DNA of 32,000 bases, taken from assembly GCA_026625185.1 (NCBI GenBank), contig CP113000.1:1275622-1307621 (forward strand), given 5' to 3'. The DNA is from Thermodesulfobacteriota bacterium. GTDB lineage: Bacteria > Desulfobacterota > WTBG01 > JAGOGO01. Under the pieces are notes generated by a model. It was not told where the DNA came from, searched no databases, and saw only the letters and a program-made list of their open reading frames with translations. Every line of letters starts with the position of its first letter. Position 1 is the first letter of the stretch. The translations under genes and the position numbers were made by a program. This document shows, piece by piece, positions 9,132-27,626 of the stretch.

Positions 9132-9219
9132 CTGTGTCCTCCTTAAAATAGCAGTAACGTGCAACCCAATTCAAAATTCCACCTCATTGTCTCACGAAAG
9201 AATAAAAGGCGCGTAACAT

Positions 9220-10824: not shown

Positions 10825-12789
10825 ATGAGGTACTCAGAGACAGGGTTTAATTTAGAAATTGACCTATCCCGGGGAAACATTGAGAGGGTTGAAACCGACC
10901 CACGATTAACCGAGCTTTATCTGGGGGGTCTCGGTACTAACGCCAAGATATTATGGGATAGGGTTCCCCCAGAAACTGATCCCTTTTCGCCTGACGCTCC
11001 CCTGATTTTCAGTTCAGGCCTTTTAGGCGGCACAATTGCTCCCGGCGCTAATCGCACCATTATTACTGCTTACTCCCCTCAGACTCTTCTAATGGGATTT
11101 TCAATGATGGGGGGATTTTTTGCGCCGGAAATGAAGTATGCCGGATATGACAAAATCATTTTTCGCGGCAAGTCCCCCGATCTGGTCTATTTGTGGATAA
11201 ATAATGACAAAGTAGAAATACGTGATGCCGCTCATCTCCGTGGTAAAGGCGCTGTTGAAACTCAAGACATTATACGGAAGGAGTTGAATCAGCCGAGCGC
11301 CCATGTGGCTGCTATCGGTCTGGCCGGTGAAAACCGGGTCTATACGGCTTCCATCGAGCAGGGCAGGTCCAGCGCCAGCCGGCTCGGATTAGGAGCTGTG
11401 ATGGGAGACAAAGGGATAAAGGCGATAGCTGTTCGTGGGACAAATGACATCAATATTGCTCGGCCGGATGAATTTATAAAGCTTTGCAACGAAGTGCTGG
11501 AATATATAAAATTCCGAAACGCGAATCCGGTTCCGAACATAATGACCATTTTACAGGGGCTTGGTTCACCTCAAGAGATGGTGGAGACTGATGAGAAATG
11601 GCACACCGAGAATTTCAGTTGGGGAAATTCCCGCATTCGTAGAAAAGACTTCTGGACCAAGGAAATTGAAGAGAGATGGAAGAGTGTTCAATTAGATGTG
11701 CGGAAGCGGTTAATTAGCTGCTACAACTGTCCGATGAAATGCGGGGCAATAATTGCCGTCCCGGGACTTTCGATCTATATGATGAAATGCTTCACAAAAC
11801 TAACCTATACAATGGGAGCTTTAGTAGACGACCTGGATTTTGGTTTTAGAATCTCTCAACGCGCTGCGGAATATGGAGTGGACGGATTTTCAACCCCGCA
11901 AATTATGGCCTTCGGCTTCGAGCTTAAAGAAGCCGGCATTTTGACTGACGCGGATTTTGAAGGATGCCCTTCCGATAACGAGGGAAGATTTTACTGGCTC
12001 CTTGACAGAATTGTCCGGCGGGAAGGGATAGGAGATATCCTGGCTGATGGCACGCATTGGGCGGCCAAAAAGATCGGTAAGGGAGCAGAAGCGTACGTTC
12101 ACAACAATATCAAGAAGCATGAGCAGCTGCCTCTTAAGCTTGGAATGCTGAACCCCGTCTATTACCTGATGTATGCCACCGGCGAGAAAGCAAACATAAC
12201 GCAGATTGAAGGGCAGTTCCCCCAGGCGCCTTTCATGACCATGGAGGAAAGAGAAGCATTTGTAAAGGATTGGTTCCAGGTTCCTGATGAAAAGTTTAAA
12301 CAATATGTTCTGGACTGGGAACCGCGGGGAGAGCACTCAAATCCATTGTACCCGACTGTTGACATGTCCGTTGACATTGTTGACTGGCAAGAAAAAATGC
12401 ATTACATTGATGACGCCCTCGGGGTGTGCGCCGGTTTGTCATCATTTCCTCTGAAGCCTCCTTATCATATGCACAATTACCCCCATTTTATCTCATCAGC
12501 GAGCGGGATTGATATGGATGAAACCGGACTAACGGAAGTATATAATAGGAACCGCAATCTGGTTAGAGCCATTAATGTGAGAAGAGGCATGAGGAGAGCC
12601 GATGAGGATCCGCCCGAAGACCATTGGAAGAAAAGATTCCCAGAGCTTGAAAAAAAGCTCCTGGATGCTTATTACAAATTTAAGGGGTGGGATGATGATG
12701 GTATCCCTACGAAAGAGACATTACAGAAATTGGATCTGGGCTACGTTGCCGAAGACTTAGAACAGAGAGGTATTATAAAAAATGGCTAA
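10825..12789 (+). CDS. bamB: Class II benzoyl-CoA reductase active-site subunit BamB (tungsten bis-pyranopterin enzyme, aldehyde:ferredoxin oxidoreductase family)
   Basis: The 654-aa ORF has an AOR-family N-terminus (MRYSETGFNLEIDLSRGNIERVETDP..LYLGGLGTNAKILWD) and the [4Fe-4S] motif LISCYNCPMKCG. Long stretches such as NNIKKHEQLPLKLGMLNPVYYLMY and GLSSFPLKPPYHMHNYP match what I recall of Geobacter BamB. It is followed by the full bamC-I set. Confidence 0.88.
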   Translation: MRYSETGFNLEIDLSRGNIERVETDPRLTELYLGGLGTNAKILWDRVPPETDPFSPDAPLIFSSGLLGGTIAPGANRTIITAYSPQTLLMGFSMMGGFFAPEMKYAGYDKIIFRGKSPDLVYLWINNDKVEIRDAAHLRGKGAVETQDIIRKELNQPSAHVAAIGLAGENRVYTASIEQGRSSASRLGLGAVMGDKGIKAIAVRGTNDINIARPDEFIKLCNEVLEYIKFRNANPVPNIMTILQGLGSPQEMVETDEKWHTENFSWGNSRIRRKDFWTKEIEERWKSVQLDVRKRLISCYNCPMKCGAIIAVPGLSIYMMKCFTKLTYTMGALVDDLDFGFRISQRAAEYGVDGFSTPQIMAFGFELKEAGILTDADFEGCPSDNEGRFYWLLDRIVRREGIGDILADGTHWAAKKIGKGAEAYVHNNIKKHEQLPLKLGMLNPVYYLMYATGEKANITQIEGQFPQAPFMTMEEREAFVKDWFQVPDEKFKQYVLDWEPRGEHSNPLYPTVDMSVDIVDWQEKMHYIDDALGVCAGLSSFPLKPPYHMHNYPHFISSASGIDMDETGLTEVYNRNRNLVRAINVRRGMRRADEDPPEDHWKKRFPELEKKLLDAYYKFKGWDDDGIPTKETLQKLDLGYVAEDLEQRGIIKNG

Positions 12790-13327
12790 GGTTAAGAAGA
12801 AAATCAAGTCAATCAAGATCGATCTTGATAAATGCAATGGTTGCCGGGCATGTGAGGTGATTTGCTCAGCTTTTCATGCGAGCCCGAAATACAGCGGCGC
12901 CAATCCAGGGAGGGCCCGTATTCGGATGATTCGCGACCCGTTAAGAGACGTATATGTTCCTGTATATGCGGGTGAGTATACCCCTGCCGAATGCATGGGC
13001 AGAGACAAATATGTAATTGACGGAAAAGAATACGATGAGTGTGGCTTTTGCAGAGCTTCCTGCCCATCCAGAGACGCCTTCAAAGACCCCGATTCAGGTC
13101 TTCCTCTAAAATGCGATATGTGTGAAGATGATCCGCCGCAAGAAAAGCCCTTGTGTGTTCAGTGGTGTTTAAATGATGCCCTGATTTACGAAGAAAGGGA
13201 AGAGGAAGTAGAAGAAGAAGAAAGTCCTGAGGCCTTGGAGGTTGGGGTTAAAGCATTGACAGACAAATTTGGATTGGACCAGATAATGGATGCCGTTGCC
13301 CGAATGTCAATGTCAAAGAAAGGCTAA
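12782..13327 (+). CDS. bamC: BamC, poly-[4Fe-4S] ferredoxin-like electron-transfer subunit
   Basis: The 181-aa ORF overlaps the bamB stop by 8 nt (ATGGCTAA), implying translational coupling. Cys clusters include CNGCRACEVIC, CGFCRASCP and CDMCEDD..CVQWC, and the tail is acidic. Confidence 0.8.
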   Translation: MAKVKKKIKSIKIDLDKCNGCRACEVICSAFHASPKYSGANPGRARIRMIRDPLRDVYVPVYAGEYTPAECMGRDKYVIDGKEYDECGFCRASCPSRDAFKDPDSGLPLKCDMCEDDPPQEKPLCVQWCLNDALIYEEREEEVEEEESPEALEVGVKALTDKFGLDQIMDAVARMSMSKKG

Positions 13328-13339
13328 TAATCCGTAAGT

Positions 13340-13384
13340 CGTAAAAAGTGAAATGCTTCACCGTCTTACATTTTACGGTTTTTA
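13340..13384 (+). terminator. Terminator-like bulged hairpin + T-run between bamC and bamD (possible partial attenuator)
   Basis: The outer stem pairs CGTAAAA (13340-13346) with TTTTACG (13371-13377). The inner hairpin is GTGAA-ATGC-TTCAC (13348-13361), and GTTTTTA follows. The stem is AU-rich, so at best this is a leaky terminator. Confidence 0.3.
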
Positions 13385-13420
13385 CACCATTAAGGCGAAA
13401 TAAGAGGCTTAAGAAAAACA

Positions 13421-14572
13421 GTGGAGATGGTAGCACCCTTACAAGAAGTAATAGATCTAACAAAAAATGCCGGTGGGGAATCCTTCAAATTCTGCTATCA
13501 ATGCGGATTATGCGATGTTGTTTGTCCGTGGAATAGGGTTAGAACCTTTAGTATGCGCAAGTTAGTCCGGCAGGCTGCGTTTGGTTTGACCGAGATAGAA
13601 CATGAAGAGATATGGCGTTGTACCACTTGCGGAAGATGCCCTCAGCAATGCCCCCGTGGAGTAGAACAGATAAAACTTGGGGTATCCTCGCGCAGAATTG
13701 CCTCGGAATACGGAGTTTTTCCTGCTTCGGTCACTCCGGTGCGCGGGGTAAGCGCAAGTCTTGTTGCCGAAGGCAACCCCTTGGGTGAAGAGCGCCAAAA
13801 GCGGGCAAATTGGGCGGAAGGTCTGTCAGTAAAACCGTTTACCGCGGGGATGGAAATTTTGTATTTTCCCGGCTGCTACTTAAGCTATGACCCGAGATTA
13901 AAAAAGGTATCCCGAGCCACTGCCACCATCCTTAAAAAGGCAGGGGTAGATTTTGGGATATTGGGTGCCAAGGAGAACTGTTGTGGAGAAAGCATCCGCA
14001 AGACTGGCAATGAGGAAGTATTCAAACAATTAGCCAGGGAAAACATCAAAACTTTTATTGATAATGGGGTGAAGAAAATTTTGGTTTCTTCTCCTCATTG
14101 CTACCACACTTTCAAAAACGAGTACCCCGAATTCATGGTGAACTTCGAGGTGGTTCATATCGCCCAATACTTATTCGATCTTATTAACGAGGGAAGGCTT
14201 GCGATCACCAAGGAGTATGGGAAGAAAATTACCTATCATGATCCCTGTTACCTGGGCCGACATAACGGCATATTTGACCAACCCCGAGAGGTCTTAAAGA
14301 AGATACCCGGCATAGAACTGAATGAGATGCCGGATTCGCGAAAAAATAGTCTCTGTTGCGGCGGCGGCGGAGGCCGGATTTGGATGGAAACTCCAAAGGG
14401 TGAGCGATTCTCCGACCTCAGAGTAGTGCAAGCTGTTGGCGTCGGAGCTGACGTTTTGGTTACTTCCTGCCCTTACTGCATTTCAATGTTTGAAGACAGC
14501 AAGTTAACTCTGAAGGATAGTGATGCCTTAGAGATTAATGACATCACGGAAATTATCCAGGAAGTGATTTAG
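13421..14572 (+). CDS. bamD: BamD, HdrD-like subunit (2x[4Fe-4S] ferredoxin domain + two CCG domains)
   Basis: The 383-aa ORF contains CYQCGLCDVVCP and CTTCGRCPQQCP motifs. Two CCG-domain motifs follow (GAKENCCGES...SSPHCYH and SLCCGGGGGRIW...TSCPYCISM). The start could be GTG 13421 or ATG 13427. Confidence 0.85.
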   Translation: MEMVAPLQEVIDLTKNAGGESFKFCYQCGLCDVVCPWNRVRTFSMRKLVRQAAFGLTEIEHEEIWRCTTCGRCPQQCPRGVEQIKLGVSSRRIASEYGVFPASVTPVRGVSASLVAEGNPLGEERQKRANWAEGLSVKPFTAGMEILYFPGCYLSYDPRLKKVSRATATILKKAGVDFGILGAKENCCGESIRKTGNEEVFKQLARENIKTFIDNGVKKILVSSPHCYHTFKNEYPEFMVNFEVVHIAQYLFDLINEGRLAITKEYGKKITYHDPCYLGRHNGIFDQPREVLKKIPGIELNEMPDSRKNSLCCGGGGGRIWMETPKGERFSDLRVVQAVGVGADVLVTSCPYCISMFEDSKLTLKDSDALEINDITEIIQEVI

Positions 14573-14590
14573 AGGACAAAGAAGTTAAAC

Positions 14591-15388
14591 ATGCAAGAAG
14601 CGATTGACGTATCAGCCCTGAAAGGTGTAGTAGCGGGCATGACCTGTGATCGGTTTTCAGACGAGGGATGGGTGAGGACCTCAGTTTACGCGCCTAGTGA
14701 GATGCAACTGAAAATTTATATAAATCAGCAGGAACTGGTCTCCATCCTGTGCACTCCAACCAAGCTGAATTGCCTTGCCTTCGGGTTCCTGTACACCGAG
14801 GGAATCATCTCCGGCATCGGCGACGTGGCGGGCATGCGGGTGTGTGAGGATGACTCGCTGGTCGATGTGAGGCTGAGCAAAACCGAGTTTAAATTGCCGA
14901 CCCTGCGGACACTTACCTCTGGGTGCGGTGGCGGTGCAATTTTCAAAACTGAGGGACAAAGGGTTGATTCTGGTCTTACTGTTACACCAACGGAAGTGCT
15001 GGCGCTGATGAAAAAGCTTCAAGGGCAGATGCAACTCTTTCGGCTTAGCGGCGGCGTGCACACTTCAGCTCTGTCCGATACCAGGAACCTGTTGGTGGTG
15101 GCTGAGGATATCGGACGGCATAACACCTTTGACAAGATTCAGGGCGAATGTCTATTGAGGAAACTATCAACCAAAGATCGACTGGTACTAACCACCGGTC
15201 GCGTTTCGTCCGAGATGTTGCTCAAGGCGGCAAAGATGAAGGTACCGGTTGTTGCAACCCGGCACTCGCCGACGGAGCGAGCTATTTCGCTTGCTCTTGA
15301 TCTGGGTATTGCTTTGGTTGGCTATGCCCATGGAAACAGTCTGTCGGTCTATTCCCACCCGGAACGACTTGGGTGGTCGACAAATTAG
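14591..15388 (+). CDS. fdhD: FdhD-family sulfurtransferase/cofactor-insertion protein, embedded in the bam operon
   Basis: The 265-aa ORF carries the FdhD hallmarks GGVHTSAL, EDIGRHNTFDKIQG and VVATRHSPTERAI. Its Cys loop reads LTSGCGGGAIF, with a single Cys where E. coli-type FdhD has SSCGVCG. Confidence 0.8.
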   Translation: MQEAIDVSALKGVVAGMTCDRFSDEGWVRTSVYAPSEMQLKIYINQQELVSILCTPTKLNCLAFGFLYTEGIISGIGDVAGMRVCEDDSLVDVRLSKTEFKLPTLRTLTSGCGGGAIFKTEGQRVDSGLTVTPTEVLALMKKLQGQMQLFRLSGGVHTSALSDTRNLLVVAEDIGRHNTFDKIQGECLLRKLSTKDRLVLTTGRVSSEMLLKAAKMKVPVVATRHSPTERAISLALDLGIALVGYAHGNSLSVYSHPERLGWSTN

Positions 15389-15454
15389 GTGTATGGCTAA
15401 CCCGACGGACGGCGGATATCACAGAAACAAAAAAACCGGATAAGGTGATAGAAA

Positions 15455-18400
15455 GTGGAAAATGTAATAATGCTCAAAGAAAATATTCAAGAACTTGGTA
15501 AAACTCTTGGAGCCAATAGTGTTGGCGATGTCATGATTATAGGTGGAGGGATCAGCGGTATTCAAGCGTCTCTTGATCTTGCCAATGCGGGTTTTAAGGT
15601 TTACCTGGTTGAGAAAGCGCCGTCCATTGGGGGCCATATGGCCCAGCTTGACAAGACCTTTCCAACCAATGACTGCTCAATGTGAATACTTGCACCCAAA
15701 CTGGTCGAGGTCGGCCGGCATCCCAATGTAGAAGTCCTCACCTATACTGAAGTTGAGAGTGTAGCAGGGGAAGTAGGAAACTTTAAGGTAACCCTGGTTA
15801 AAAAGCCCAGGTATATTCTAGAGGACAAATGCACGGGCTGTACTACCTGTGTAGAGTACTGCCCGGTCAAATACCCTGATCAATATAATCAGGAAATATC
15901 GAAGAATAAGGCAGTCCATGTATATTTCGCTCAGGCGATTCCACTTATCACTTATATAGATGAAAGCTGTCTTTATCTTAAAGAGGGCAAATGTCGTATT
16001 TGCGAAGCAGTATGTAAGAATAAGGCGATAGATTTCAATCAAACGCCGGAAAAGGAAGAAGTAAGTGTAGGGGCGATCATTCTGGCTCCCGGCCTTGAGC
16101 CGTTTGATCCTAAGGTAAGGGAGGAATATCGGTACGGAGAGTTTCAGAACGTGGTAACCAGTATGGACTATGAGCGACTGTTATGCTCCACCGGACCATA
16201 CCAAGGTGAGATACTCCGTGCTTCCGACCTGAAGCATCCCCATAAAATAGCTTGGATTCAATGCGTCGGTTCCAGACAGGTTATCGAGGGCGGTAACAGC
16301 TATTGTTCAGCCGTATGCTGCACGTATACCCAGAAACAGGCGATTTTGACAAAGGATCATGATGCCGGGGCAGAGTGTGTAATATTTCATAATGATATTC
16401 GTTCCTATGGGAAGGATTTTGAGCGATTCTACGAAAGGACCGAGAAACTTCCCGGGGTTCGATTTATCAGGAGCTACACATCAATTGTTAAGGAGAACCC
16501 GGAAACCAAGAATGTCACCATACGGTATTCTACACCCGATGATGGAGTAAAAGAGGAAGAATTCGATATGGTGGTACTGTCCGTCGGATTGAATCCTCCT
16601 GCGGATGTATTGGACCTGGCAAAAAAATTCGGCATTAAACTAAATCCTCACGATTTTTGCAACCTCAATCCTGTCAATCCTATGGAGACCAACAGGCCTG
16701 GGATCTTTGTAAGCGGAGGTTTCCAGGGACCTATAGATATTCCCGAGTCGGTTTTCAGCGCCAGCGGGGCCAGCTCCCAAATTGGTGAGCTTCTTGACTA
16801 CCGGCGAGGAATTCTTTCCAAAGAAAGGATCTATCCGCCGGAAAGGGATGTCTCCAAAGAGGATCCAAGGATAGGGGTCTTTGTGTGTCATTGTGGGGCT
16901 AATATCGGAAGGATAGTCAATGTTCCTGAAACAGTTGAATATTGCAAATCCTTACCCAATGTTGTCTACGCCCAGGAGCAGCTGTTTTCCTGCGCTACTA
17001 ATTCCGCCAAAGAAATAACGGACATGATCAAAGAAAAAGGGCTCAATCGAGTGATTGTCGCCGCCTGCTCGCCCAGGACCCTTGAGCCGCTATTCCGGGA
17101 TACTGTTCGGGAGGCAGGAATCAATCAATACTACTTTGAAATGGCAAACATTAGGGAGCATAACTCCTGGGTCCACTCGAAAGAAAAGGAAGAAGCCTCC
17201 GAAAAGGCACATGATATAATCCGGATGTCGGTAGCGCGAGCCTGCCATTTGGAGCCATTACAGGAATTTGATCTACCGGTCAACAAGGCGGCGTTAGTGG
17301 TTGGAGGAGGGATAGCCGGCATGACTAGTGCTCTCTCCATAGCCAACCAGGGGCATGAGGTTCACCTGCTGGAAAAGGATACAGAGCTTGGGGGAATAGC
17401 ACGGAGAATTCATGATACGCTGGAAGGACTGGATGTTCAGGCGTATTTGCGCGATCTGATAAGAAAGGTATATCAACACCCTTTAATACATGTATATCAT
17501 GATACCACCATCACCGGGGCGACAGGTTATGTGGGAAATTTCGTAACCAAGGTGAAGTCTGACAGAGGAGTCACAGAGATAAAACATGGCGCATCCGTCA
17601 TCGCAATAGGGGTTGATGTATATAAACCTGCCGAATACCTTTATGGAGAAGACGACCGGGTCTTGACCCATCTCGAGTTGGAGGAACAGATCACCAAAGG
17701 AAACGAAAAGGTGATTAACGCAGAAAGTCTCGTGATGATACAATGCGTGGGCTGCAGAAATGAGGAGAGAAATTATTGCAGCAGGCTGTGCTGCAGCGAG
17801 TCGGTCAAAAACGCTTTGAAACTGAAAAAAATAAACCCCAAAATGAATATTTACATCCTCTTTCGGGATATAAGAACATATGGATTCAAAGAGGATTATT
17901 ACCGGGAAGCTGCGGATAAAGATGTAAAGTTCATTCGCTATGAACCGGAAGATCCACCGGAGGTGAAAGCTGTTAAAGATGGCGGTAAGAGCATTCTAAA
18001 GGTTTCCTTGCCGGATTATATTTTAGGGCAGAAGCTTGAAATAGATGCGGATATCATTTCCCTGGCCGCCGCTGTTGTTCCTTCTTCAGCCACCAAGGAG
18101 GTCGCCGGATTATTCAAGGTGACTTTGAGCCCGGATGGCTTCTTCAAAGAAGCCCATGTTAAATTAAGACCGGTTGAGTTTGCTACCGACGGCGTTTACC
18201 TTTGTGGATTGGCCCACTATCCTAAGTTTATGCAGGAAACGATTAACCAGGCTTATGGAGCTGCTGGCCGGGCCTTAACGCTTTTGTCACACGATATCGT
18301 CATCGCCTCCGGCTCGGTTTGCGGGGTGGATGAGAATAGGTGTGTTTCATGCGGGGCATGTATCACCGTTTGCACCTATGGCGCCATAGAGTTTTATGAT

Positions 18401-18583
18401 ACCCCCCAGGGCAGAAAGGCCAGGGTTAACCCGGTTCTCTGCAAAGGAGATGGTCTTTGTAACACGGTGTGTCCGACAGCGGCTATTTCACTAAAGCACT
18501 TTACCGATGAAGAGATCTTGAGCCAAATTGATGCGGCGGTTCCGGAGGAAGAGATCATACAAAAAATTGAGGCTGCCGCCTGA
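15455..18583 (+). CDS. bamE: BamE, HdrA-like flavo-iron-sulfur selenoprotein; in-frame TGA 15683-15685 read as selenocysteine
   Basis: The start GTG 15455 is preceded by AAGGTGA-N6. The frame is open from 15455 to 18583 apart from one TGA. I translated 15686-16150 by hand and found no stop ([23 protein letters not shown]...[12 protein letters not shown]...[15 protein letters not shown]...[12 protein letters not shown]). The track ORFs 15455-15685 and 16151-18583 are in the same frame. The TGA lies in [14 protein letters not shown], a position I recall as Cys or Sec in HdrA. There are two FAD GxGxxG modules ([17 protein letters not shown] and [17 protein letters not shown]). The product is 1042 aa. 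Confidence 0.85.
15701..15718 (+). other. Candidate bacterial SECIS hairpin for the bamE UGA
   Basis: The hairpin begins 15 nt after the UGA. It reads CUGGUC-GAGGUC-GGCCGG, a 6-bp stem with two G.U pairs. The apical loop contains GGUC, the loop sequence I recall from the E. coli fdhF SECIS. Confidence 0.45.
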
Positions 18584-18653
18584 TGCCGATGGTGAAGGAT
18601 GTATAGAATTTTATGAATAAAGCCGGGATTACTAACTAAGGAGGTAAGAAAGA

Positions 18654-19421
18654 ATGATTTCAGGACTCAAATTTAAGCCAAGATTAATAGGTTTCGTATG
18701 CCACTGGTGAGCATACGGGGCTGCTGACCTGGCTGGAGTTTCCAGACTGCAATATACCACTGAAATGAGGCTTATTCGCGTCATGTGCACCGGCAGAGTC
18801 GACTTGGAACATGTACTCCGGGCTTTCTCGAAGGGAGTGGATGGGGTATTTATTGGCGCCTGCCATCTAAATGAATGTAACTATATTACTCATGGCAACT
18901 ACCATGCATTAACCATGGTGAATATATGTAAAAAAATAATGGAAAACATTGGCCTGAATCCTGAAAGATTAAGGATCCGATTCATGTCCGGCGCTGAAGC
19001 AAGCCTTTTTGTAGAATCTGTTAATGAGTTTGTCAAGACGGTGAAGGAAATAGGCCCCCTTGGCAAAGTCGAAGGAATAAACAAGAATGCATTAAAGGCC
19101 AAGCTTGAGGCCGTGACACAGCTAGTCCCCTACATCAGGTTGGTGGAAAGGGAGAGGCTGCGATTACCTTTTAAATCGGAAGAAGAATATAATAATTTTT
19201 TCACCAGTGACGAATTCAACAAGTTATTTAATGAGTTAATTGTAGAAAAATTGGCAATAAGCCAAATAACCTCACTCTTGCGGGAAAGACCCCTTTCGGC
19301 TGGTAAAATCTCTGAATATTTAGGCCTAGCCCCGTCTGAGGTTTCAAGATACATGAATACTTCATCAAGGCAGGGATTAGTCAGGTATGATGAAGGCCGC
19401 AATTGCTTCGCTCTTGCCTAA
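18654..19421 (+). CDS. bamF: BamF, MvhD-like [2Fe-2S] selenoprotein with C-terminal winged-helix-like extension; TGA 18708-18710 read as selenocysteine
   Basis: The start ATG 18654 has a strong SD (AAGGAGG at 18638-18644). It is in frame with the track ORF that starts at 18765. The N-terminus reads MISGLKFKPRLIGFVCHW-U-AYGAADLAGVSRLQYTTEMRLIRVMCTGRVD. This aligns with the MvhD motif FCCNWCSYAGADLAG, with Sec at the last Cys. The product is 255 aa. Confidence 0.82.
18728..18745 (+). other. Candidate bacterial SECIS hairpin for the bamF UGA
   Basis: The hairpin lies 18-35 nt after the UGA. One fold is CUGGA-GUU-UCCAG (18733-18745). An alternative fold pairs CUGG (18729-18732) with CCAG (18742-18745) and leaves a 9-nt loop containing GG and GU. 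Confidence 0.4.
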
Positions 19422-19451
19422 CCCCGATACACGGGATAAATACGTTAACGA

Positions 19452-19486
19452 AATTATTTTCTGCCGGAAAAACGCAGAAAATAATT
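19452..19486 (+). other. Perfect 13-bp inverted repeat between bamF and bamG (RNA hairpin or palindromic protein-binding site)
   Basis: AATTATTTTCTGC (19452-19464), loop CGGAAAAAC, then GCAGAAAATAATT (19474-19486). No T-run follows, so it is not a classic terminator. Confidence 0.6.
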
Positions 19487-19528
19487 CCTGACATACTAAG
19501 GTGAAAGAGGCAGATTAGGAAAGCGACT

Positions 19529-19981
19529 ATGAATAAAGGTAGAGTCGATCAAATTATAGAAAAGCATCATGGCGAAGCCAGTTCGCTCATTCAAGTACTA
19601 CTGGAGATTCAGAGTGAGCATCATTGGCTTCCCAAGGAAGCATTAGATAGGATCAGCGAAAAATTACAAGTTCCTTTAACCAGGATACTTTATATAGCCA
19701 CCTTCTATAAAGCCTTTAGTTTAGTTCCTAAAGGACGTCATGAAGTTCACGTTTGTGTTGGTACTGCCTGTCATGTTCGCGGCGCGCCGCGTATCCTTGA
19801 CACGGTGCAAGACCTGACTGGAATTAAACCCGGCGAAACGGACGCAGATTTGAAGTTTAGCCTGGAGACTGTTAATTGCCTCGGCTGCTGTGCTTTAGGA
19901 CCGGTGTTGGAAGTCAATGGAAAGACTTACGGTAACATGGGGCCATCCAAGACCGCAGAGGTGTTAAAAAACTACGAATAA
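19529..19981 (+). CDS. bamG: BamG, NuoE/HoxE-like [2Fe-2S] subunit
   Basis: The 150-aa ORF has thioredoxin-like [2Fe-2S] motifs CVGTACHVRG and CLGCCALGP. Confidence 0.85.
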   Translation: MNKGRVDQIIEKHHGEASSLIQVLLEIQSEHHWLPKEALDRISEKLQVPLTRILYIATFYKAFSLVPKGRHEVHVCVGTACHVRGAPRILDTVQDLTGIKPGETDADLKFSLETVNCLGCCALGPVLEVNGKTYGNMGPSKTAEVLKNYE

Positions 19982-19990
19982 GGAAAAATT

Positions 19991-21919
19991 ATGTTAAGGA
20001 TAAACTCCCCTGAGGAGTTAGAAAAACTCAGACAAGAAATTTTATCCCGGAGTGACCCAAGCAAACCTTGCATTTCAATATGCGCTGGCGCCGGTTGTCT
20101 TGCTTCCGGTGCAGGTGAAGTTATAGCCGCCTTTAAAGCAGAGATTGAAAAGCAAGGCTTAACGACGGATGTGAATACCAAAGGAACCGGGTGCCCTGGA
20201 TTTTGTGAAAGAGGACCCGTTGTGATTATTTATCCTGAGGAGATATGTTATCTCCGGGTAAAGCCTGATGACGTTCCCGAGATTATCTCACAGACTATAA
20301 GGGAAAAAAGGGTTGTCGACCGTCTATTATATGTTGACCCAACCACCGGCGAAAAAGCAATTCATGAATCCGACATCCCCTTTTATAAGAATCAAAAACG
20401 AAATCTTATCAGCTATAATAGTAAGATTGATTCCAAGAGCATTGATGACTATTTGGCGATCGGTGGTTATTCCGCATTAGCTAAAGTCCTTTTCAAGATG
20501 ACCGCCGAGCAAGTATTGGAAGAAGTCAAAAAATCCAACCTGAGAGGAAGGGGGGGTGGCGGCTTTCCCGCAGGGAATAAGTGGGAGGGATCCCGCAATG
20601 CTCCTGAACCAATCAAATATGTGCTCGTCAATGCCGATGAGGGTGACCCTGGGGCATTTATGGATAGAGCTCTCCTTGAAGGAAACCCTCATTCAATCCT
20701 TGAGGGATTGACTATTGGAGCTTACGCTATCGGCTCCCACGAGGGTTATATTTACGTGAGGCAGGAATATCCCTTAGCGGTAGTAAATGTGAACATCGCC
20801 ATCAGGCAGGCCGAGGAATATGGTTTGCTTGGGAAGAACATACTCGGGTCTGGTTTTGATTTCACTGTTAAAGTTCACCAGGGAGCCGGCGCTTTTGTCT
20901 GTGGTGAATCAACGGCTTTGATGACGGCATTGGAAGGCAGGGCAGGAGAGCCCAGACCGAAGTATATCCGCTCCAACATCGTGGGCCTTTGGGGTCGGCC
21001 CACCGTTTTGAATAATGTTGAGACCTGGGCAAATGTGCCGCTTATCATCAATAAGGGCGCAGATTGGTTTACTCAATTTGGAACTGAAAAGAGCAAGGGC
21101 ACGAAGATCTTTTCCCTGGTTGGGAAGATAACCAATACCGGGCTTGTGGAAGTGCCCATGGGCATCACCCTGAGAGATATTATTTACAAGATAGGCGGTG
21201 GAATCCCAGGAGGCAAGAAGTTCAAAGCCGTGCAGACCGGGGGACCGTCCGGAGGATGTATCCCTGAGAAACTGTTAGATTTGGAAGTTGGTTTTGATGA
21301 ACTCACCAAGGCCGGTTCAATGATGGGTTCAGGTGGGATGATCGTAATGGATGAAGATACCTGTATGGTTGACGTCGCCAGGTACTTTCTTAACTTCCTC
21401 ATCGATGAATCGTGCGGCAAATGCACCCCATGCCGTGAAGGCATCAGGCAGATGCTTAAGATTCTCACTAATATCACTAAAGGAAAGGGAAAAGAGGGCG
21501 ACATCGAGCTTTTGGAGGAATTAGCCGAAGTAGCCATCGATGCCTCACTATGTGCTTTAGGGAAGAGTGCCCCTAACCCGCTTCTCAGCACGGTGCGATA
21601 CTTCAGAGATGAGTATGAGGCACACGTCAAGGAGAAAAGGTGCCCGGCTTTATCCTGCAAGGAGCTGATCGCGTACCATATTGACCCGAGTAAGTGCCAG
21701 GCATGTATGATTTGCCTTAAGAAGTGCCCTGCCGACGCTATTGAAGGCGGCAAGAACCGGATCCATGTAATTGACCAGGGAAAATGCACAAAGTGCGGAA
21801 CTTGCATTGAAGTTTGCCCCGCTCGCTTTGGTGCTGTAAATAAGATTTCAGGCCAGCCTGTTCCGGCTCCTATCCCTGAAGATGCAAGAACTTTAGTCAG
21901 AAAGAGTAAAGAACAATGA
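19991..21919 (+). CDS. bamH: BamH, NuoF/HoxF-like FMN- and NAD(P)H-binding iron-sulfur subunit
   Basis: The 642-aa ORF has an N-terminal thioredoxin-like [2Fe-2S] domain (CAGAGCLASG...CPGFCERGP). It also carries the FMN/NADH motifs GRGGGGFPAGNKW and ADEGDPGAF, the [4Fe-4S] motif ESCGKCTPCREG, and a C-terminal 2x[4Fe-4S] ferredoxin (CQACMICLKKCP and CTKCGTCIEVCP). Confidence 0.88.
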   Translation: MLRINSPEELEKLRQEILSRSDPSKPCISICAGAGCLASGAGEVIAAFKAEIEKQGLTTDVNTKGTGCPGFCERGPVVIIYPEEICYLRVKPDDVPEIISQTIREKRVVDRLLYVDPTTGEKAIHESDIPFYKNQKRNLISYNSKIDSKSIDDYLAIGGYSALAKVLFKMTAEQVLEEVKKSNLRGRGGGGFPAGNKWEGSRNAPEPIKYVLVNADEGDPGAFMDRALLEGNPHSILEGLTIGAYAIGSHEGYIYVRQEYPLAVVNVNIAIRQAEEYGLLGKNILGSGFDFTVKVHQGAGAFVCGESTALMTALEGRAGEPRPKYIRSNIVGLWGRPTVLNNVETWANVPLIINKGADWFTQFGTEKSKGTKIFSLVGKITNTGLVEVPMGITLRDIIYKIGGGIPGGKKFKAVQTGGPSGGCIPEKLLDLEVGFDELTKAGSMMGSGGMIVMDEDTCMVDVARYFLNFLIDESCGKCTPCREGIRQMLKILTNITKGKGKEGDIELLEELAEVAIDASLCALGKSAPNPLLSTVRYFRDEYEAHVKEKRCPALSCKELIAYHIDPSKCQACMICLKKCPADAIEGGKNRIHVIDQGKCTKCGTCIEVCPARFGAVNKISGQPVPAPIPEDARTLVRKSKEQ

Positions 21920-22542
21920 GTGAAATCATTTTACAGATAGATGGAAAAGAAGTCAAAGCAAAGGAAGGGATGACCGTTTTGGAGGCAGCCCAAAGCGCGG
22001 GGATATCCATACCCACACTCTGTCACCATGAAAAATTGGAACCCTATGGGGGTTGCCGACTTTGTATCGTAGAAGTAGAAGTTCGCGGCTGGACACAGCT
22101 CGTTGTTTCCTGTGTTTACCTGGCGGCAAAAAATTTGATTGTAAGAACTAGATCTGAGAAGGTAGATAGAATTCGCAAAATGATCTTAGAACTATTGCTG
22201 GCTCATGCCCCGGATGCTTTCGAATTGCAGGATTTGGCTAAAGAGTATGGAGCAGACAAAGACCGTTTTGAAAAAGAGTCCTCATTTTGCATTCATTGTG
22301 GTCTATGTGTAAGATATTGTGCTGAGGTCAAGAAGAAGAATGCGGTTGGATTTGTTGACAGAGGAACAAGGAAAGAGATCAGTTTCATTCCAGGGATAGC
22401 ATCTAAGGAATGCTGGAACTGCAAGGAATGTTTTCCGCTTTGCCCTACAGAGGCCTTACAAGCAGCTTTCGTTTTAACCAAAGCGCTCATTTCCTCCCCA
22501 CCCTCCTCCGAACTTGTGTCAGTGGGAATAGGCAAAGATTAA
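21916..22542 (+). CDS. bamI: BamI, NuoG N-terminal-like [2Fe-2S]/[4Fe-4S] subunit
   Basis: The 208-aa ORF has a start that overlaps the bamH stop (ATGA). It begins with a plant-type [2Fe-2S] region (IPTLCHHEKLEPYGGCRLCIVEV), followed by CIHCGLCVRYC and CWNCKECFPLCP. Confidence 0.8.
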   Translation: MSEIILQIDGKEVKAKEGMTVLEAAQSAGISIPTLCHHEKLEPYGGCRLCIVEVEVRGWTQLVVSCVYLAAKNLIVRTRSEKVDRIRKMILELLLAHAPDAFELQDLAKEYGADKDRFEKESSFCIHCGLCVRYCAEVKKKNAVGFVDRGTRKEISFIPGIASKECWNCKECFPLCPTEALQAAFVLTKALISSPPSSELVSVGIGKD

Positions 22543-22733
22543 TATACTTTTTCATGGGTGGGAACAATGCTTATTGCAGTAATCGGTCATTCCAGTGAAA
22601 ATGAAACTTCATACTATCGCTGCGAAATTTTCAATACAAAGTGATCATTTTATGGTGATCAAGGATTAGTACTGGATTCCTGGTCCCTAATGGAATGATC
22701 CCAAAAGCTTTTTTTTAGATAGGAGGGAAAGTC

Positions 22734-23507
22734 ATGCAGAAGGTAACGTGTGAAAAAATGTTTGATAATCAGGTATGGAAGATTATTCTTAATGATCCCA
22801 AGGGGAATGTGGTTGATTCCATTATGTTAAAGGGATTTCAGGAGGTGCTTGATGAGGTTTCAAAAGAAAAGCATTGCAAATTAATTATTTTTCAGGGCGC
22901 CGGAAGTCATTTTTCCTTTGGAGTGAGTGTGGAGGAACATACCGAAAAACTGGCCGCAGGAATGCTGGCAAGCTTTCACGACTTATTTATTAGGTTAACT
23001 GATTTAGGGATACCGGTTTGCTCTCTGATCTCCGGACAGTGTCTTGGTGGGGGAGTAGAGATCGCCACTTTCGCTCATTTTGTTTTCGCTGATGAGACTG
23101 CCCGGATTGGTCAGTCAGAAGTCGCTCTTGCAGTTTTTGCTCCCCCGGCATCAGTGATATTGCCCCTTAAAGTCGGCCATATGCATGCAGAAGATATTCT
23201 CCTTACCGGTAGAAGCCTTACTGCACAGGAAGCCAAGCAAATGGGACTTTTAAACGAGGTTTATCCTGATAAGAGTACGATGGAACAAAAGGTGAACGAA
23301 TGGATTCAGCAGCAGATTCTTCCTAAGAGTGCTTTCGCCTTAAAGGTGGCCACAAAACAAGTCCGCAAACGCTTCAATGAACGATTAAAGGAAGATTTAC
23401 GGTTTTACGAATCAGTTTATATGAATGAGCTCATGAAGTCTCATGATGGTAAGGAAGGTTTGAACGCGTTTTTAGAGAAAAGGAAACCGGTTTGGACCGA
23501 TGATTAA
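22734..23507 (+). CDS. Crotonase-family enzyme, most likely cyclohexa-1,5-diene-1-carbonyl-CoA hydratase (Dch/BamR-like)
   Basis: The 257-aa ORF has a strong SD (AGGAGGG-N6-ATG). Its motifs GAGSHFSFGVSVEEH, GQCLGGGVEIA, LAVFAPPAS and MNELMKSHDGKEGLNAFLEKRKPVW match my recollection of Thauera Dch (GPHFSFGASVDEH, GQCLGGGLE, LGVFAPAAS, ...EGLKAFLEKR). It lies directly downstream of the bam genes. Confidence 0.65.
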   Translation: MQKVTCEKMFDNQVWKIILNDPKGNVVDSIMLKGFQEVLDEVSKEKHCKLIIFQGAGSHFSFGVSVEEHTEKLAAGMLASFHDLFIRLTDLGIPVCSLISGQCLGGGVEIATFAHFVFADETARIGQSEVALAVFAPPASVILPLKVGHMHAEDILLTGRSLTAQEAKQMGLLNEVYPDKSTMEQKVNEWIQQQILPKSAFALKVATKQVRKRFNERLKEDLRFYESVYMNELMKSHDGKEGLNAFLEKRKPVWTDD

Positions 23508-23540
23508 TTTTTTAAAACAACAGGCGCTGAAGTAATATGA

Positions 23541-23569
23541 GAAAGCCCATCCGGGCTTTCTTTTTATTT
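23541..23569 (+). terminator. Rho-independent terminator of the bam-dch transcription unit
   Basis: GAAAGCCC-ATCC-GGGCTTTC forms a perfect 8-bp stem with a 4-nt loop. TTTTTATTT follows immediately. Confidence 0.85.
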
Positions 23570-23906
23570 ATAATTTATTGGCTCACATAACTCCATATCT
23601 TCCCAGACAAAAATACCGATGCCAACCACCGGCGGTTTGTCTCCTGCAGGAGTCGGCATGCCTTTAGCATAATAGGTAGCAACGATTCCCGACAGCGTTT
23701 TCTTAGCCAAAGGCACAAGTTTTGTTACATAATATTCCTTATCAAATCTCTCTCCCGCCGGTGGTTGGTAGTAAATTGCCTTAGTTTAATCATTGATTGC
23801 TCCTTTACCAAAATTAGATGATTTCCTCTGTCAGCCAGATTTTGCCAGCAATCATCCTCCACCGATCTACCCAAATGAGATTGCCAATAACTACATCCAA
23901 TTGAAA

Positions 23907-25058
23907 TTATTTTAGGTTTCCCAGAATTTCTCGGCCAATAATGATTTTCTCTACCTCCTTTGTCCCTTCATAAATTTCCAAGACTTTGGCAGCCCGGTAA
24001 AATCGTTCAATGTCCTGATCATTGAAATACCCATAACCCCCATGGAGCTGCAGCGACTCATCCACCATTTCTACCGCAACATGACAGGCATAAAGTTTGG
24101 CCATCGCGGTCAGTTTCGTGTCGGGCCGGCCCTGGTCAAGTAACCACGCTGCCTTGTAAACCATGTTGCGGGCAGTCTCAACCTTGGTTGCCATCTCAGC
24201 TATTTTAAACTGAGTAACCTGAAAGGCTCCCAGGGGCTGGCCAAACTGTTTCCGCTCTTTGACGTGTTTGATTGCCATGTCCAGCGCCCCTTGAGCAAGT
24301 CCCACGGCATGTCCAGCCACATAGGCCCGGGATCGGTCAAAAAAATTCATCAGTTGAATAAATCCGTTTCCTTCCTTACCAATGAGATTTTCTTGGGGAA
24401 CCCGGACATCGGTGAAATAGATGCTGGCGGTGTCCGAACACCTTATCCCCATTTTCCCTTCCATCCGGTCGGCTTCGTAGCCTTTGCGATTAGTTTCCAG
24501 CAGAATAATGCTGTGGCGGCCGGTCTTGGATTTCTCTTCCGGATTGGTAAGGCAATAGACGAGCATATGGGTTCCTTTGGTGCCATTGCTGATCATGACT
24601 TTGCTGCCGTTAATAACATAGTCATTGCCGTCTTTTACCGCCGTGGTTGAAGCAGCAGCGGTGTCACTTCCGGCATCGGGTTCGGTGATGGCAAAACCAA
24701 AGATCGTGTTACCCTCAAAAATGGGGGGCAAAAATTTCTTTTTCTGTTCCTCGGTTCCGTAAAGAAGCAGCTCTTCGACGCCAAAACTAATGGTGCAAAG
24801 CTGCTGGCCAATGCCGGGGTCTACCCTCCAAAACTCCTCTAAAACCATCGCCTGTTCCAGATACCCGAACCCAGGCCCGCCGTATTCTTCAGGAATAAAA
24901 AGACCGACCAGACCGAGTTCCTTTGCTTTCTTGATTATCTCTTCGGGAAAGGTCTCGTTTAAATCATACTCACGGGCAACATCGGTAAACTCCCCAACCG
25001 CAAAATCCCGTGCTGCTTTTTTGATGTCTCTTTGTTCATTAGTTAAATCAAAATTCAT
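23907..25058 (-). CDS. Acyl-CoA dehydrogenase (short/medium-chain ACAD type; substrate not assignable)
   Basis: The 383-aa ORF has an SD (AAGGAGG-N7-ATG). ACAD motifs include FAITEPDAGSD, GSKVMISNG and QLHGGYGY, with the catalytic Glu in EIYEGTKEV. Confidence 0.88.
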   Translation of the reverse strand: MNFDLTNEQRDIKKAARDFAVGEFTDVAREYDLNETFPEEIIKKAKELGLVGLFIPEEYGGPGFGYLEQAMVLEEFWRVDPGIGQQLCTISFGVEELLLYGTEEQKKKFLPPIFEGNTIFGFAITEPDAGSDTAAASTTAVKDGNDYVINGSKVMISNGTKGTHMLVYCLTNPEEKSKTGRHSIILLETNRKGYEADRMEGKMGIRCSDTASIYFTDVRVPQENLIGKEGNGFIQLMNFFDRSRAYVAGHAVGLAQGALDMAIKHVKERKQFGQPLGAFQVTQFKIAEMATKVETARNMVYKAAWLLDQGRPDTKLTAMAKLYACHVAVEMVDESLQLHGGYGYFNDQDIERFYRAAKVLEIYEGTKEVEKIIIGREILGNLK

Positions 25059-25200
25059 CTCAATGCCTCCTTTGTTAGTACGCCAATAACAATCGCATAT
25101 AGATTATGGAGTTACGCCACTATTTTTTAATAAAATTGCCACCAGCTTCAATACTAACCATCTTTTACTTGCACCACGGAACGCAACTCACCCGGGGGTG

Positions 25201-27183
25201 CTAAAGCAAATCCACCAGTACTTCCGCCAGATCCTTCACTTCGATCTTATTTTCATATCCGGCGGTCTTGACTGCGTCCTCCAGCATGCTCAGGCAGAAA
25301 GGACAAGCCGTTATAAGGAGCTCGGCCCCGACTTCAGCCGCATCCCGAGCACGAAGCTCGGATATTTTTTCCCTGGCTTCGAATTCTTCCATCCAGACCC
25401 GGCCACCGCCTCCACCGCAGCAAAAGCTGTTGCGCCGGTTTCTTTTCATCTCCACAAATGTAACTCCCGGGATCGCCCGGATAACCATCCGCGGTGCATC
25501 ATAAATCCCACAGTGCCTTCCCAGGTAGCAGGGATCGTGATAGGTCACCCGCTTTTCTAACTTTTTGGAAATTGTCAGCTTCTTTTCCTGGATCAGCCTT
25601 GCTAGGAGTTCAGTATAGTGTTGAACTTTTATTTCCGACTCAGTTTGAATCTCAAGTTTTTTGCGATAAAGCGGGTATTCATCCCGCAACATCTTTAACC
25701 CATGGGGACAGGTGGTCACGATCTCTTTAACGCCGCACTCTTCGAGTGTTTCGTAATTTTTCATGATCAACTCTTCTAAAAGCCCTTCCTCGCCGATCCT
25801 TTTTGGCATATCTCCACAGCAGGATTCTTTGTTTCCGAGAATGCCAAAGTCCAATCCTGCCTTACTAAATACTCCTGCTGCGCATCTGGCAATCTCCTGC
25901 AAACGATTATCGTATGCAGACGCGCAGCCTACGAAGTAAAGGAGCGCTGCTTTTGCTCCTTTGGAAAGGTCTTTTATCCCCAGGTCTTTTGCCCACTCCG
26001 TTCGTTTGTTCTTGGGTCCCTGATAAGGATTTCCGTACTTAAATATCGCCTCTAACATGGTCCCTACCATCGAGGGAACCTGGGTGCCTTCTTCTACCTT
26101 TGACCTCCGGATCTCGCGAATGATATCCAGACTGTTGATAGTTATTGGGCATTCTTCCACACACGCCCGACAGGTAGTACACATCCAGGCTTCTTCTCCC
26201 TGAAGGACTACGGTTTTTGAAACCTCAGTTACTGGTTTTTTTAACCATACGTTTACTAATCGGGAAACACGGTACTTCGTCTTTGCATAAACTTTCATCT
26301 TTTGATTTATTGCCCGAGGTGAGAGCGTCTCTCCGCTGACATTTGAAGGACATTTCGTCTCGCACCGATTACAACGGGTACAGGCATCAAAGGCAACAAG
26401 GCGGCGACGGCTAAATTCCTGGGTCAGTTTTTCTCTTTCTTCCAGAGTCATCACTTCTGAAGGAAGCGTTTCGAGAATTACATTAAGAGGGCTAGTGATT
26501 ACGTGAAATAATTTGGAAAAAGGCAGGTAGCCGAAAAGGAAGAAACTCAAAACCGAATGGATCCACCAGATGGTAACATGGCATTGGAGCGCATCTCCCC
26601 GGAGGAACCCGGCAAGGTATGCACCCACCGGCTCCCAGGATAACCATGGTTCTGGTTTGGCTTTCAGACGATATCCTTCGATAAGAAAGCCCGTGATACC
26701 AATTGTGAGAAGTAAAAACAGCACCAGGGGATCTTCAAGAAGATTATTCATTTTCCCGGCCTTGAGGAGATACCGCCGGATCAGGGCCATTATCAAACCA
26801 ACAATAAACAACAGCCCAACGATATCGAGGGTCAAAGAATAATACAAATAAATTGGCCCGCTTAGAAAATTAAAAATATAATCATTAAAGGCTGATAATA
26901 CCGTCCCCAGGAATAAAATAAAAAAACCCCACATGATGAACATGTGCATGAGCCCTCCAAAGAGGTCTCGGGAAAAGATCTTGGCGTTTCCCAGAATTTG
27001 TTTTAGGGTTGCTGAAAAAACCCGCGAAAGATCTAACGTGTTTTTGCCGGGCCAGCCTTGCAACCAAACCCAGATATTCCGGTAACAACCACCAAGAAAA
27101 ATCACGACCGAAAAAGCAGCCAGAAGATAAAAAATCACGTGGTAGCTAATATTCCAAAATATCTCTCGCTCAGCCATGATCAT
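25201..27183 (-). CDS. Membrane-anchored HdrD/BamD-like Fe-S oxidoreductase (N-terminal ~5-TM His-containing domain + 2x[4Fe-4S] + two CCG domains; architecture of ETF:menaquinone oxidoreductase-type enzymes)
   Basis: The 660-aa ORF has about 5 predicted TM helices in the first 230 aa, with conserved-looking His residues (MHMFIMW, WWIHSV, LFHVI). Ferredoxin motifs [12 protein letters not shown] and [12 protein letters not shown] follow, then CCG motifs (NKESCCGD...TTCPHG and [12 protein letters not shown]...TACPFCLSM). The soluble part is visibly paralogous to bamD in this window. The start is ATG 27183 or ATG 27177. Confidence 0.75.
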   Translation of the reverse strand: [660 protein letters not shown]

Positions 27184-27520
27184 CGCCTTCCTTATTTTGA
27201 CATTCTTACGCTGGCTTAAAAATATTAACGTAAGGTTTCGTTTACCTCCCCTTAAGTTGAACGTGTATCAACCGTTAAACACTATGCCTTCGAATAATGA
27301 CTCGTTGCTTGTTTCGATGGCTTTTCCCATTGCCAGAACATAGTCAACCATTAAAAGGCACCGTGTCAAGAGAAAAAATATCCACTCCTAAAAAAGAAAG
27401 TTACCACCAGCTGGCTCATAACTAATGGTTACCGAACATCTATTTAGGAGGAGACGATCCCTTTTATTCACCTCCTTTGACAACATTTAATTTGAGGCAA
27501 TTCGTACTGTAAATGCATTC

Positions 27521-27549
27521 TTGACAGAGGTTATTTTTTCTTTTATCAT
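27521..27549 (+). promoter_or_regulatory. Sigma70-type promoter for the DUF4416-yicC-remA-gmk unit (TTGACA-N17-TATCAT)
   Basis: The -35 hexamer TTGACA is at 27521-27526 and the -10 hexamer TATCAT at 27544-27549, with a 17-nt spacer. An unusually U-rich ~70-nt leader follows. Confidence 0.55.
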
Positions 27550-27626
27550 CTAAAAAACCTGCTGGGGCCGCCTGCGGGACGATTTTTAAAAGAAAATTTT
27601 TTATTTTTTATTTTTTTTGTTTTTCT

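Follow-up and report, generated by a model that had tools for sequence, protein, structure and literature searches.

The stretch of DNA analysed here (the "window") comprises 32,000 nucleotides from a Thermodesulfobacteriota bacterium (assembly GCA_026625185.1, contig CP113000.1, positions 1,275,622 to 1,307,621 of the forward strand). On its forward strand it carries the bam genes of a class II benzoyl-CoA reductase (BCRII) and dch, which encodes cyclohexa-1,5-dienoyl-CoA hydratase. Convergent with this cluster, on the reverse strand, lies a unit of two genes encoding a 660-residue membrane protein and a 383-residue acyl-CoA dehydrogenase (ACAD). The membrane protein is probably an electron-transfer flavoprotein (ETF):menaquinone oxidoreductase of the EMO/EtfD family, and is called EMO below. 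Together with the ACAD it forms the stump of an operon, now beside bam. Judged from its sequence, from a structural model and by analogy with characterised enzymes, it would re-oxidise the ETF reduced by BamD, by glutaryl-CoA dehydrogenase (GDH) and by the ACAD.

A preliminary description, made from the sequence alone, had placed the two open reading frames (ORFs) 142 bp apart, the second with its own strong Shine-Dalgarno sequence and with no etfAB in the window. Both ORFs lie where they had been placed (Table 1). Each has a good Shine-Dalgarno sequence, AGGAGG 6-7 nt 5' of the ATG for the ACAD and AAGGAAGG 5' of the ATG for EMO. A tblastn search of the whole window with EtfA and EtfB gave no match.

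Table 1. Coordinates of the EMO-ACAD unit and of associated features in the window
Feature	Position	Strand	Basis or remarks
EMO/EtfD-family gene, 660 aa, candidate ETF:(methyl)menaquinone oxidoreductase	25201..27183	-	ORF, Pfam, AlphaFold2 model, Foldseek
NarI-like five-helix heme-b membrane domain of EMO, about residues 1-240	26464..27183	-	H80 and H227 proximal heme, H209 distal heme, T94, E169, E7
Fer4 region of EMO	25984..26418	-	Cysteines invariant in alignment A1; Fer4_8/Fer4_9 matches
HdrB-like non-cubane-cluster (2x CCG) domain of EMO	25204..25956	-	CCG Pfam match 3.5e-33
ACAD, 383 aa, short/medium-chain (butyryl-CoA-dehydrogenase-like)	23907..25058	-	Pfam, PDB matches, NCBIfam, dN/dS
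EMO-ACAD spacer, 142 bp	25059..25200	-	AGGAGG Shine-Dalgarno; weak sigma70-like match 25130-25103
x195 remnant, 25 codons and stop	27268..27345	-	tblastn with the 195-aa protein of locus L093
GC-rich hairpin between convergent dch and ACAD, candidate bidirectional terminator	23539..23562	.	
BamD, soluble HdrD-like subunit of class II benzoyl-CoA reductase, 383 aa	13421..14572	+	
bamB-bamC-bamD-fdhD-bamE(Sec)-bamF(Sec)-bamG-bamH-bamI and dch (22734-23507)	10825..23507	+	

A membrane protein with EMO/EtfD architecture

EMO has five transmembrane (TM) helices (about residues 15-41, 74-102, 109-140, 150-175 and 198-222), on which a hydropathy scan and the AlphaFold2 model agree. Its membrane domain contains histidines 15, 80, 202, 209 and 227, and the positive-inside loops place the C-terminus in the cytoplasm. 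Pfam assigns a Nitrate_red_gam domain (NarI-like, PF02665), a Fer4 dicluster and two CCG domains. Taken together, Pfam, helices and Foldseek give the order of three domains in one chain: a NarI-like five-helix domain, an HdrC-like domain with two [4Fe-4S] clusters and an HdrB-like domain with two CCG motifs, an arrangement that fits EMO/EtfD. All eight cubane cysteines are present, a complete set for two cubane clusters. The CCG ligands are C420, C455-C456 and C492-P-H494-G495, followed by C552, C588-C589 and C627-x-x-C630. H494, invariant in alignment A1, would cap the proximal non-cubane cluster, and Gly495 stands in place of a ligand cysteine. In the membrane domain, all of 115 homologues retain H80, H209 and H227, and T94 (100%), E169 (99%) and R6 (at least 97%) are also conserved.

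The AlphaFold2 model, built on a 30-sequence alignment, reached a pLDDT of 91.7 and a pTM of 0.87. Its sole whole-chain Foldseek match in the PDB is 9OJN, the EtfD of Mycobacterium smegmatis (E=9e-35, TMq 0.84, 734 columns); LutA, HdrB and NarI each match a single domain. The same protein is the best PDB match by sequence (9ojn_A, E=1e-68), followed only by HdrB and HdrC fragments. A soluble subunit of the GlpC, LutA or GlcF type was considered and rejected, as these give only partial fold matches and have no TM domain. The preliminary description had likened the protein to characterised ETF:(methyl)menaquinone oxidoreductases, and domains, heme ligands and fold bear this out. With its three conserved histidines the TM domain does not lack heme residues, and fold and sequence match EtfD instead of grouping the protein with GlpC or lactate-utilisation proteins. 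In every sequence- and structure-based character tested, the predicted 660-residue protein is of the EMO/EtfD type.

The closest functional model is SaEMO (SYN_02638), the ETF:methylmenaquinone oxidoreductase of Syntrophus aciditrophicus (mBio 2022, PMC8805022). In its cryo-EM structure, the five-helix NarI-like domain binds heme bP through H87/H251 and a distal heme through H233, and the HdrC-like domain contains two cubanes. The HdrB-like domain harbors two non-cubane clusters; here the former CoM site is obstructed by H534, and G535 stands where a cysteine used to be, resulting in a [4Fe:5S] cluster (10.64898/2026.08.18.745454). The window EMO shares the single chain with the same three domains, and the same C-P-H-G signature corresponding to H534/G535. 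Residues were mapped through Smithellaceae/Syntrophales proxies sharing the E22/H87/F94/A101/H109 spacing, not through SYN_02638 itself; the proxies came from another search for homologues, which started from a Syntrophaceae locus. The published SaEMO residue fingerprint, at its published numbering, occurred in no protein from the homologue searches, and SYN_02638 is not among the PDB sequences. Via these proxies, E7, H80, F87, T94, Y102, E169, H209 and H227 of EMO correspond to E22, H87, F94, A101, H109, E187, H233 and H251 of SaEMO, and the 18-residue spacing of H209 and H227 equals that of H233 and H251. Among the features associated with the twin hemes and the proton-motive force in SaEMO, E169 and E7 are thus conserved, T94 occupies the A101/Ser position and Y102 that of H109. 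In SaEMO, E187 belongs to a Ca site, and E22 and H109 to the proposed proton path. The two proteins differ in length (660 versus 706 residues), and etfBA is missing beside the window EMO, although its close relatives are linked to these genes.

MsEMO, the M. smegmatis EtfD (9OJN, orthologue of Rv0338c), agrees with the window EMO in the order of the three domains and in the histidine that caps the proximal non-cubane cluster. It is longer (1042 residues), and harbors a C-T-G motif (linear [3Fe:4S] cluster), a C-P-H-C motif and a single heme, whereas the window EMO possesses C-C-G and C-P-H-G and keeps all distal-heme features.

Operon origin and selection

The exact window EMO occurs on a JGI contig of 236 kb and on a 1.6-Mb NCBI contig. 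Contig ORM2_100512 of ORM2 matches the window region at 96% DNA identity and has the same gene order. ORM2 is a methanogenic benzene degrader, and ORM2a and ORM2b have been described as 'Ca. Anaerobenzenivorax' (Toth et al. 2026, PMC13101534). The order of the bam genes in the window is identical to that in the ORM2a proteome table, and the ORM2a orthologues of EMO and ACAD are expected under the locus tags OS130_06155 and OS130_06160, following BamR (OS130_06150). In two other organisms, EMO (88% amino acid identity) and ACAD (95%) close an operon of the order thiolase-etfB-etfA-fadB-like-x195-EMO-ACAD, followed by rho. The x195 gene, intact in both between the fadB-like gene and EMO (9326-9913 in locus L093), encodes a 195-residue protein without a Pfam or NCBIfam match. 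DNA homology of the window with these operon-type relatives (L093 and L004) covers positions 27345-23905 only. Upstream of the window EMO, tblastn reveals a remnant of x195 that is 100% identical to residues 171-195 of the L093 protein, and an ORM2 contig (L091, 7582-7965) keeps 127 x195 residues at 88% identity. The EMO-ACAD pair without etfAB therefore represents what is left, at the 3' end, of an ancestral operon of the order thiolase-etfB-etfA-fadB-x195-EMO-ACAD, and is now located beside bam and dch.

More remote relatives of EMO show both arrangements: those of 73% and 54% identity adjoin etfBA, and one distant relative does not. Neighbourhood statistics were drawn from 80 family loci sampled in a broad scan of named genomes, a set with listed matches at most 41% identical and without S. 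aciditrophicus, Geobacter metallireducens and the source genome. Among the matches listed, etfA or etfB lies within 10 kb in 28 of 80 loci, so that a lone EMO gene is common, and an ACAD gene in 17 of 80.

The etfBA genes missing from the window are found elsewhere in the ORM2 lineage, in a GDH-linked subcluster and in a plsX-linked pair. The former, a GDH-EtfB-EtfA subcluster located elsewhere in the ORM2a genome, has all three proteins detected, EtfAB with 39-63 spectra, and Bam proteins are expressed in ORM2a alongside GDH and EtfAB (Toth et al. 2026, PMC13101534). The 3,300,546-bp contig taken as the ORM2a chromosome encodes an EtfA with 91% identity to the one linked to the operon. This EtfA is found again on a 44-kb contig from JGI sample 3300040744, in which the exact window EMO is present as well. 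The lineage etfB-etfA pair (L095, 7482-11258), orthologous to that of the operon, lies between plsX and a carboxyltransferase/OadA-like pair, near sat and aprB. The carboxyltransferase/OadA-like pair is of the glutaconyl- or methylmalonyl-CoA decarboxylase type.

Several observations weigh against a working ETF:menaquinone oxidoreductase in the window. The first concern selection, measured as the ratio of non-synonymous to synonymous substitution rates (dN/dS). Within the ORM2 lineage this ratio is 0.05 for ACAD, 0.09 for BamH and 0.16 for Dch, and 0.30 for EMO in the comparison of window and ORM2 (0.3-0.43 across the lineage), against 0.11 for EMO over a longer divergence. ACAD is strongly constrained (0.05-0.07, range 0.03-0.08). 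On the window branch, polarised with an outgroup, EMO has accumulated 24 non-synonymous and 18 synonymous changes, compared to 1 and 13 for ACAD (Fisher p=0.0014). These substitution patterns point to a relaxed or altered constraint on EMO after truncation of the operon. In addition, the sequence upstream of EMO, where the operon is truncated, shows no sigma70-like promoter on the EMO strand, and the main proteome table of ORM2a does not list EMO (PMC13101534, main table only). The KEGG mapping of ORM2a contains only MenA and UbiE/MenG of the menaquinone pathway. In the protein itself, Tyr102 replaces His109, part of the proposed proton path of SaEMO, and the periplasmic TM2-TM3 loop is shorter. 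Finally, a neighbour-joining tree of the soluble module (midpoint-rooted, without bootstrap, built without HdrD, DsrK and GlpC sequences, and read for relative distances only) puts the window EMO in the other major branch than both characterised EMOs, with an identity of only about 36%.

These data raise the question of whether EMO is a decaying relic, unneeded or unexpressed and drifting after the loss of the beta-oxidation operon in a benzene specialist with few lipid pathways, with only the ACAD still in use. The disappearance of the upstream operon genes but for a 25-codon stump would agree with this, as would the unclear EMO promoter, the elevated dN/dS and the sparse lipid metabolism of the ORM2a genome (PMC13101534). 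EMO differs from its ORM2 counterpart at 30 amino acid positions, 21 of them derived in the window lineage, several by non-conservative changes (E312V, E325V, E410A, G72R). Decay is nevertheless improbable in our view: every heme and Fe-S ligand is kept despite these differences, EMO has an uninterrupted reading frame in the window, in ORM2 and in each further cluster member seen, and the dN/dS of EMO is still well below 1. Moreover, since ORM2a expresses ETF and an ETF-dependent GDH, the organism needs a route for ETF re-oxidation.

BamD, other relatives and neighbouring genes

The preliminary description had called EMO a BamD paralogue on account of long, near-identical shared motifs. Residues 264-660 of EMO align with the BamD of the window at 36% identity over 400 residues (BLASTP, E=9e-89), values that establish real homology rather than a chance likeness. 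The three motif pairs are present as quoted, at positions 443, 546 and 586 of EMO and 175, 270 and 310 of BamD (12/16, 16/20 and 12/14 identities), yet they are signatures of the whole family. In 383 membrane-bound homologues, [TV][YF]HD[PS]C[YF]LGR occurs in 291, CCG[GA]GGG in 295 and E.CCG[DE] in 297, about three quarters in each case. The same motifs served as patterns to find loci and pulled more than 600 of them from genomes. The soluble module of EMO, 36% identical to BamD, is also 36-38% identical to proteins of the SaEMO clade. In the neighbour-joining tree BamD stands on a long branch near the midpoint root, and its distance to the window EMO (0.607) matches those of the SaEMO proxy (0.61) and MsEMO (0.606). 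With the motifs family-wide and BamD no closer than the other EMO clades, EMO appears as a family relative of BamD, not as a recent or specific paralogue, and the earlier term was overstated.

The ligand sets of the distal non-cubane cluster speak in the same direction. They fall into discrete types among about 400 family proteins: CPHG with CCG (SaEMO type) is the commonest (121 proteins), followed by SPHC (BamD type, 72), CPHC (54) and CPHC with CTG (MsEMO type, 17), and a few DPH[SAT] patterns also occur among the membrane-bound homologues. The 72 SPHC proteins indicate that the BamD-type Cys-to-Ser pattern is common in membrane-anchored proteins too. In G. metallireducens BamD, this exchange gives a modified [3Fe-4S] D4 cluster (bioRxiv 10.64898/2026.04.10.717634). 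The window BamD, with SSPHC at residues 223-227, fits this cluster, whereas the window EMO has C-P-H-G. A recent duplication of bamD was rejected on account of this difference and of the equal distance to the EMO clades.

The two proteins have in common the HdrC-like and HdrB-like module, the family motifs and the histidine blocking the thiol site, and both are thought to dock ETF at their non-cubane clusters. They differ in that BamD is soluble, 383 residues long, devoid of a TM domain and encoded inside the bam operon, and in that it donates electrons to ETF and EMO accepts them. EMO departs from BamD in its 660 residues and five TM helices, its location on the opposite strand in a separate unit and its lack of S-P-H-C.

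The preliminary description had also speculated on a membrane entry point to the Bam complex through BamD-like chemistry. EMO would in that case be a membrane-anchored substitute or partner of BamD, docking on BamE and passing high-potential electrons straight to quinone without ETF. The homology over the whole soluble module and the position next to the bam cluster could be read this way, and earlier literature, as cited in 10.64898/2026.04.10.717634, assumed a membrane association of BCRII and menaquinone as acceptor. Such direct docking is nonetheless highly improbable: the bam cluster contains a complete bamD, to which EMO is no closer than to distant EMO clades, EMO carries CPHG and not SPHC, and its gene belongs to a separate, convergent transcription unit that goes back to a beta-oxidation operon with etfBA. 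The G. metallireducens reductase resides in the cytoplasm and donates to ETF, bound at BamD in cryo-electron tomography (cryo-ET). What survives of the earlier idea is an indirect link, from BamD through ETF and EMO to menaquinone, as put forward in two 2026 preprints.

Equally improbable is a quinol-linked thiol/disulfide (or sulfite-pathway) reductase of the HdrDE, DsrMK or HmeCD type serving sulfate reduction: EMO has the domain set of a fused HdrE and HdrD or DsrM and DsrK, and resembles HdrDE of Methanosarcina, DsrMK and NarI in having an HdrD-like Fe-S module coupled to a di-heme membrane module of the NarI type, but the HdrDE and DsrMK subunits are separate and have an open thiol/disulfide site, whereas EMO is fused, with His494 at the position blocking the heterodisulfide site in SaEMO, MsEMO and BamD and one distal-cluster cysteine missing (Gly495), its weak NCBIfam matches stay far under the cut-offs of the curated models (DsrK 89/400, TmcB 102/735, HmcF 86/750, QmoC 59/300 bits), and in the loci examined its relatives lie next to etfBA and beta-oxidation genes and in no case next to dsr, hme or tmc.

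The surroundings of the pair hold further genes. A 50-residue ORF (23564-23716, reverse strand), which may not be a gene, lies 3' of ACAD before the hairpin and was predicted in the ORM2 contig as well. Among the small ORFs flanking the pair (this one and those in 27184-27626), nothing but the x195 remnant was interpretable. About 2-3 kb past the 3' end of the window and about 7 kb from EMO, a gene encodes a HemN-like class-C radical-SAM protein (L001, 1856-3166, reverse strand; NCBIfam PRK08629, 488 bits). The menaquinone C-methyltransferases MenK/MqnK are HemN-like, and the gene could thus bear on methylmenaquinone synthesis. Within the bam cluster, a gene of the FdhD/NarQ sulfurtransferase family (14591-15388, forward strand) is inserted between bamD and bamE; it is also present in the ORM2a Bam cluster, where its protein has been detected. 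BamE (15470-18583, forward strand) and BamF (about 18651-19421, forward strand) contain in-frame TGA codons at 15683-15685 (CSM-U-ILAPK) and at about 18708 (CHW-U-AYG), respectively. Both are consistent with selenocysteine, so that a mechanical ORF list splits or truncates the two genes. Directly upstream of bamB, positions 3507-10248 (reverse strand) are occupied by a cluster of DUF1329/LolA-like, DUF1302, MMPL/RND transporter and Ycf48-like BNR proteins. These types of protein recur in the highly expressed 'Nanopod' cluster of ORM2a, which has been proposed to serve benzene transport (Toth et al. 2026, PMC13101534). The accession numbers of the ORM2a Nanopod proteins are far from those of bam, and the window cluster may thus be a second copy or a different arrangement.

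ACAD and the electron route to quinone

The ACAD displays the full-length N-terminal, middle and C-terminal domains of its superfamily (PF02771, PF02770, PF00441). Its best PDB matches are the medium-chain enzyme (MCAD) of Thermus thermophilus (1ukw, 322 bits) and Bcd from Bcd-Etf complexes (4l1f/5ol2_C, 312 bits), and the GDH of D. multivorans (3mpi) reaches 241 bits. All specific NCBIfam cut-offs are missed (AcrC 406/640). It looks like a generic short/medium-chain enzyme, close to butyryl- and medium-chain dehydrogenases. Two more specific identities were rejected: a non-decarboxylating GDH of the Desulfococcus type (NF045552, 300 bits for a cut-off of 470; 3mpi below MCAD and Bcd), and a dehydrogenase of cyclohexanecarbonyl-CoA or cyclohex-1-ene-1-carbonyl-CoA (NF043006 274/650 and TIGR03207 229/575 bits). 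The GDH of ORM2a is a different gene, which adjoins etfBA. The idea of a quinone-linked electron sink put forward in the preliminary description thus gains from the assignment of the membrane protein to the EMO family, while the dehydrogenases of glutaryl-CoA or cyclohexenoyl-CoA that it had suggested as partners are not supported.

By homology with the S. aciditrophicus and M. smegmatis enzymes, reduced EtfAB would dock on the cytoplasmic non-cubane-cluster domain of EMO. Electrons would then pass from the two non-cubane clusters, the proximal one presumably capped by His494 and the distal one lacking one Cys ligand like the [4Fe:5S] site of SaEMO, to the two cubane [4Fe-4S] clusters. From there they would move to the proximal heme b at H80/H227, then to the distal heme site at H209, close to T94 and E169, and finally to menaquinone or methylmenaquinone near the periplasmic face. 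The reaction would be reversible, with a possible coupling to the proton-motive force. The neighbouring ACAD may feed ETF or be fed by it. EMO would thereby re-oxidise ETF reduced by BamD on the high-potential branch, by GDH and by the ACAD, and link both ring reduction and beta-oxidation to the quinone pool.

The position of EMO beside bam fits this indirect link. In G. metallireducens, cryo-ET and enzyme assays have shown that BCRII is cytoplasmic, and that ETF is bound at and reduced via BamD; ETF acts as the high-potential acceptor and binds next to the BamD non-cubane clusters, and a benzoate-induced EMO has been proposed to regenerate it (10.64898/2026.04.10.717634). Gmet_2070 is listed as the EMO of this organism (10.64898/2026.08.18.745454) and belongs to the benzoate-induced Gmet_2057-2075 set adjoining bam. 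Compared by gene position, not by sequence, Gmet_2070 and the window EMO are alike in their co-localisation with a BCRII cluster. The two cases differ in that the window EMO is paired with an ACAD only, in an operon stump, and in that Geobacter respires with external acceptors and the ORM2 lineage lives by syntrophy or sulfate reduction.

A further-reaching possibility, which we hold to be rather unlikely, is that precisely these two genes of the lost beta-oxidation operon have been kept for a common purpose. EMO beside bam would close the bifurcation circuit, possibly through a reverse loop driven by the proton-motive force, and the ACAD would provide a second, soluble outlet for ETF by converting crotonyl-CoA to butyryl-CoA ('enoyl-CoA respiration'). 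If this were true, a benzene specialist living by syntrophy or sulfate reduction could reduce the ring without a respiratory acceptor.

What is known of the EMO family is unchanged by this locus, and the Bam-ETF-EMO connection had already been proposed in the literature. An EMO gene next to bam provides independent comparative support, outside Geobacter, for the 2026 proposal of an electron route from Bam through ETF and EMO to quinone. The operon stump and the relaxed constraint hint at the way in which a specialist genome may retain nothing of a beta-oxidation operon but its electron-transfer end. For ORM2a, the main text of the proteogenomic study names no route of ETF re-oxidation and does not mention menaquinone (PMC13101534); the EMO of the window is the obvious candidate.

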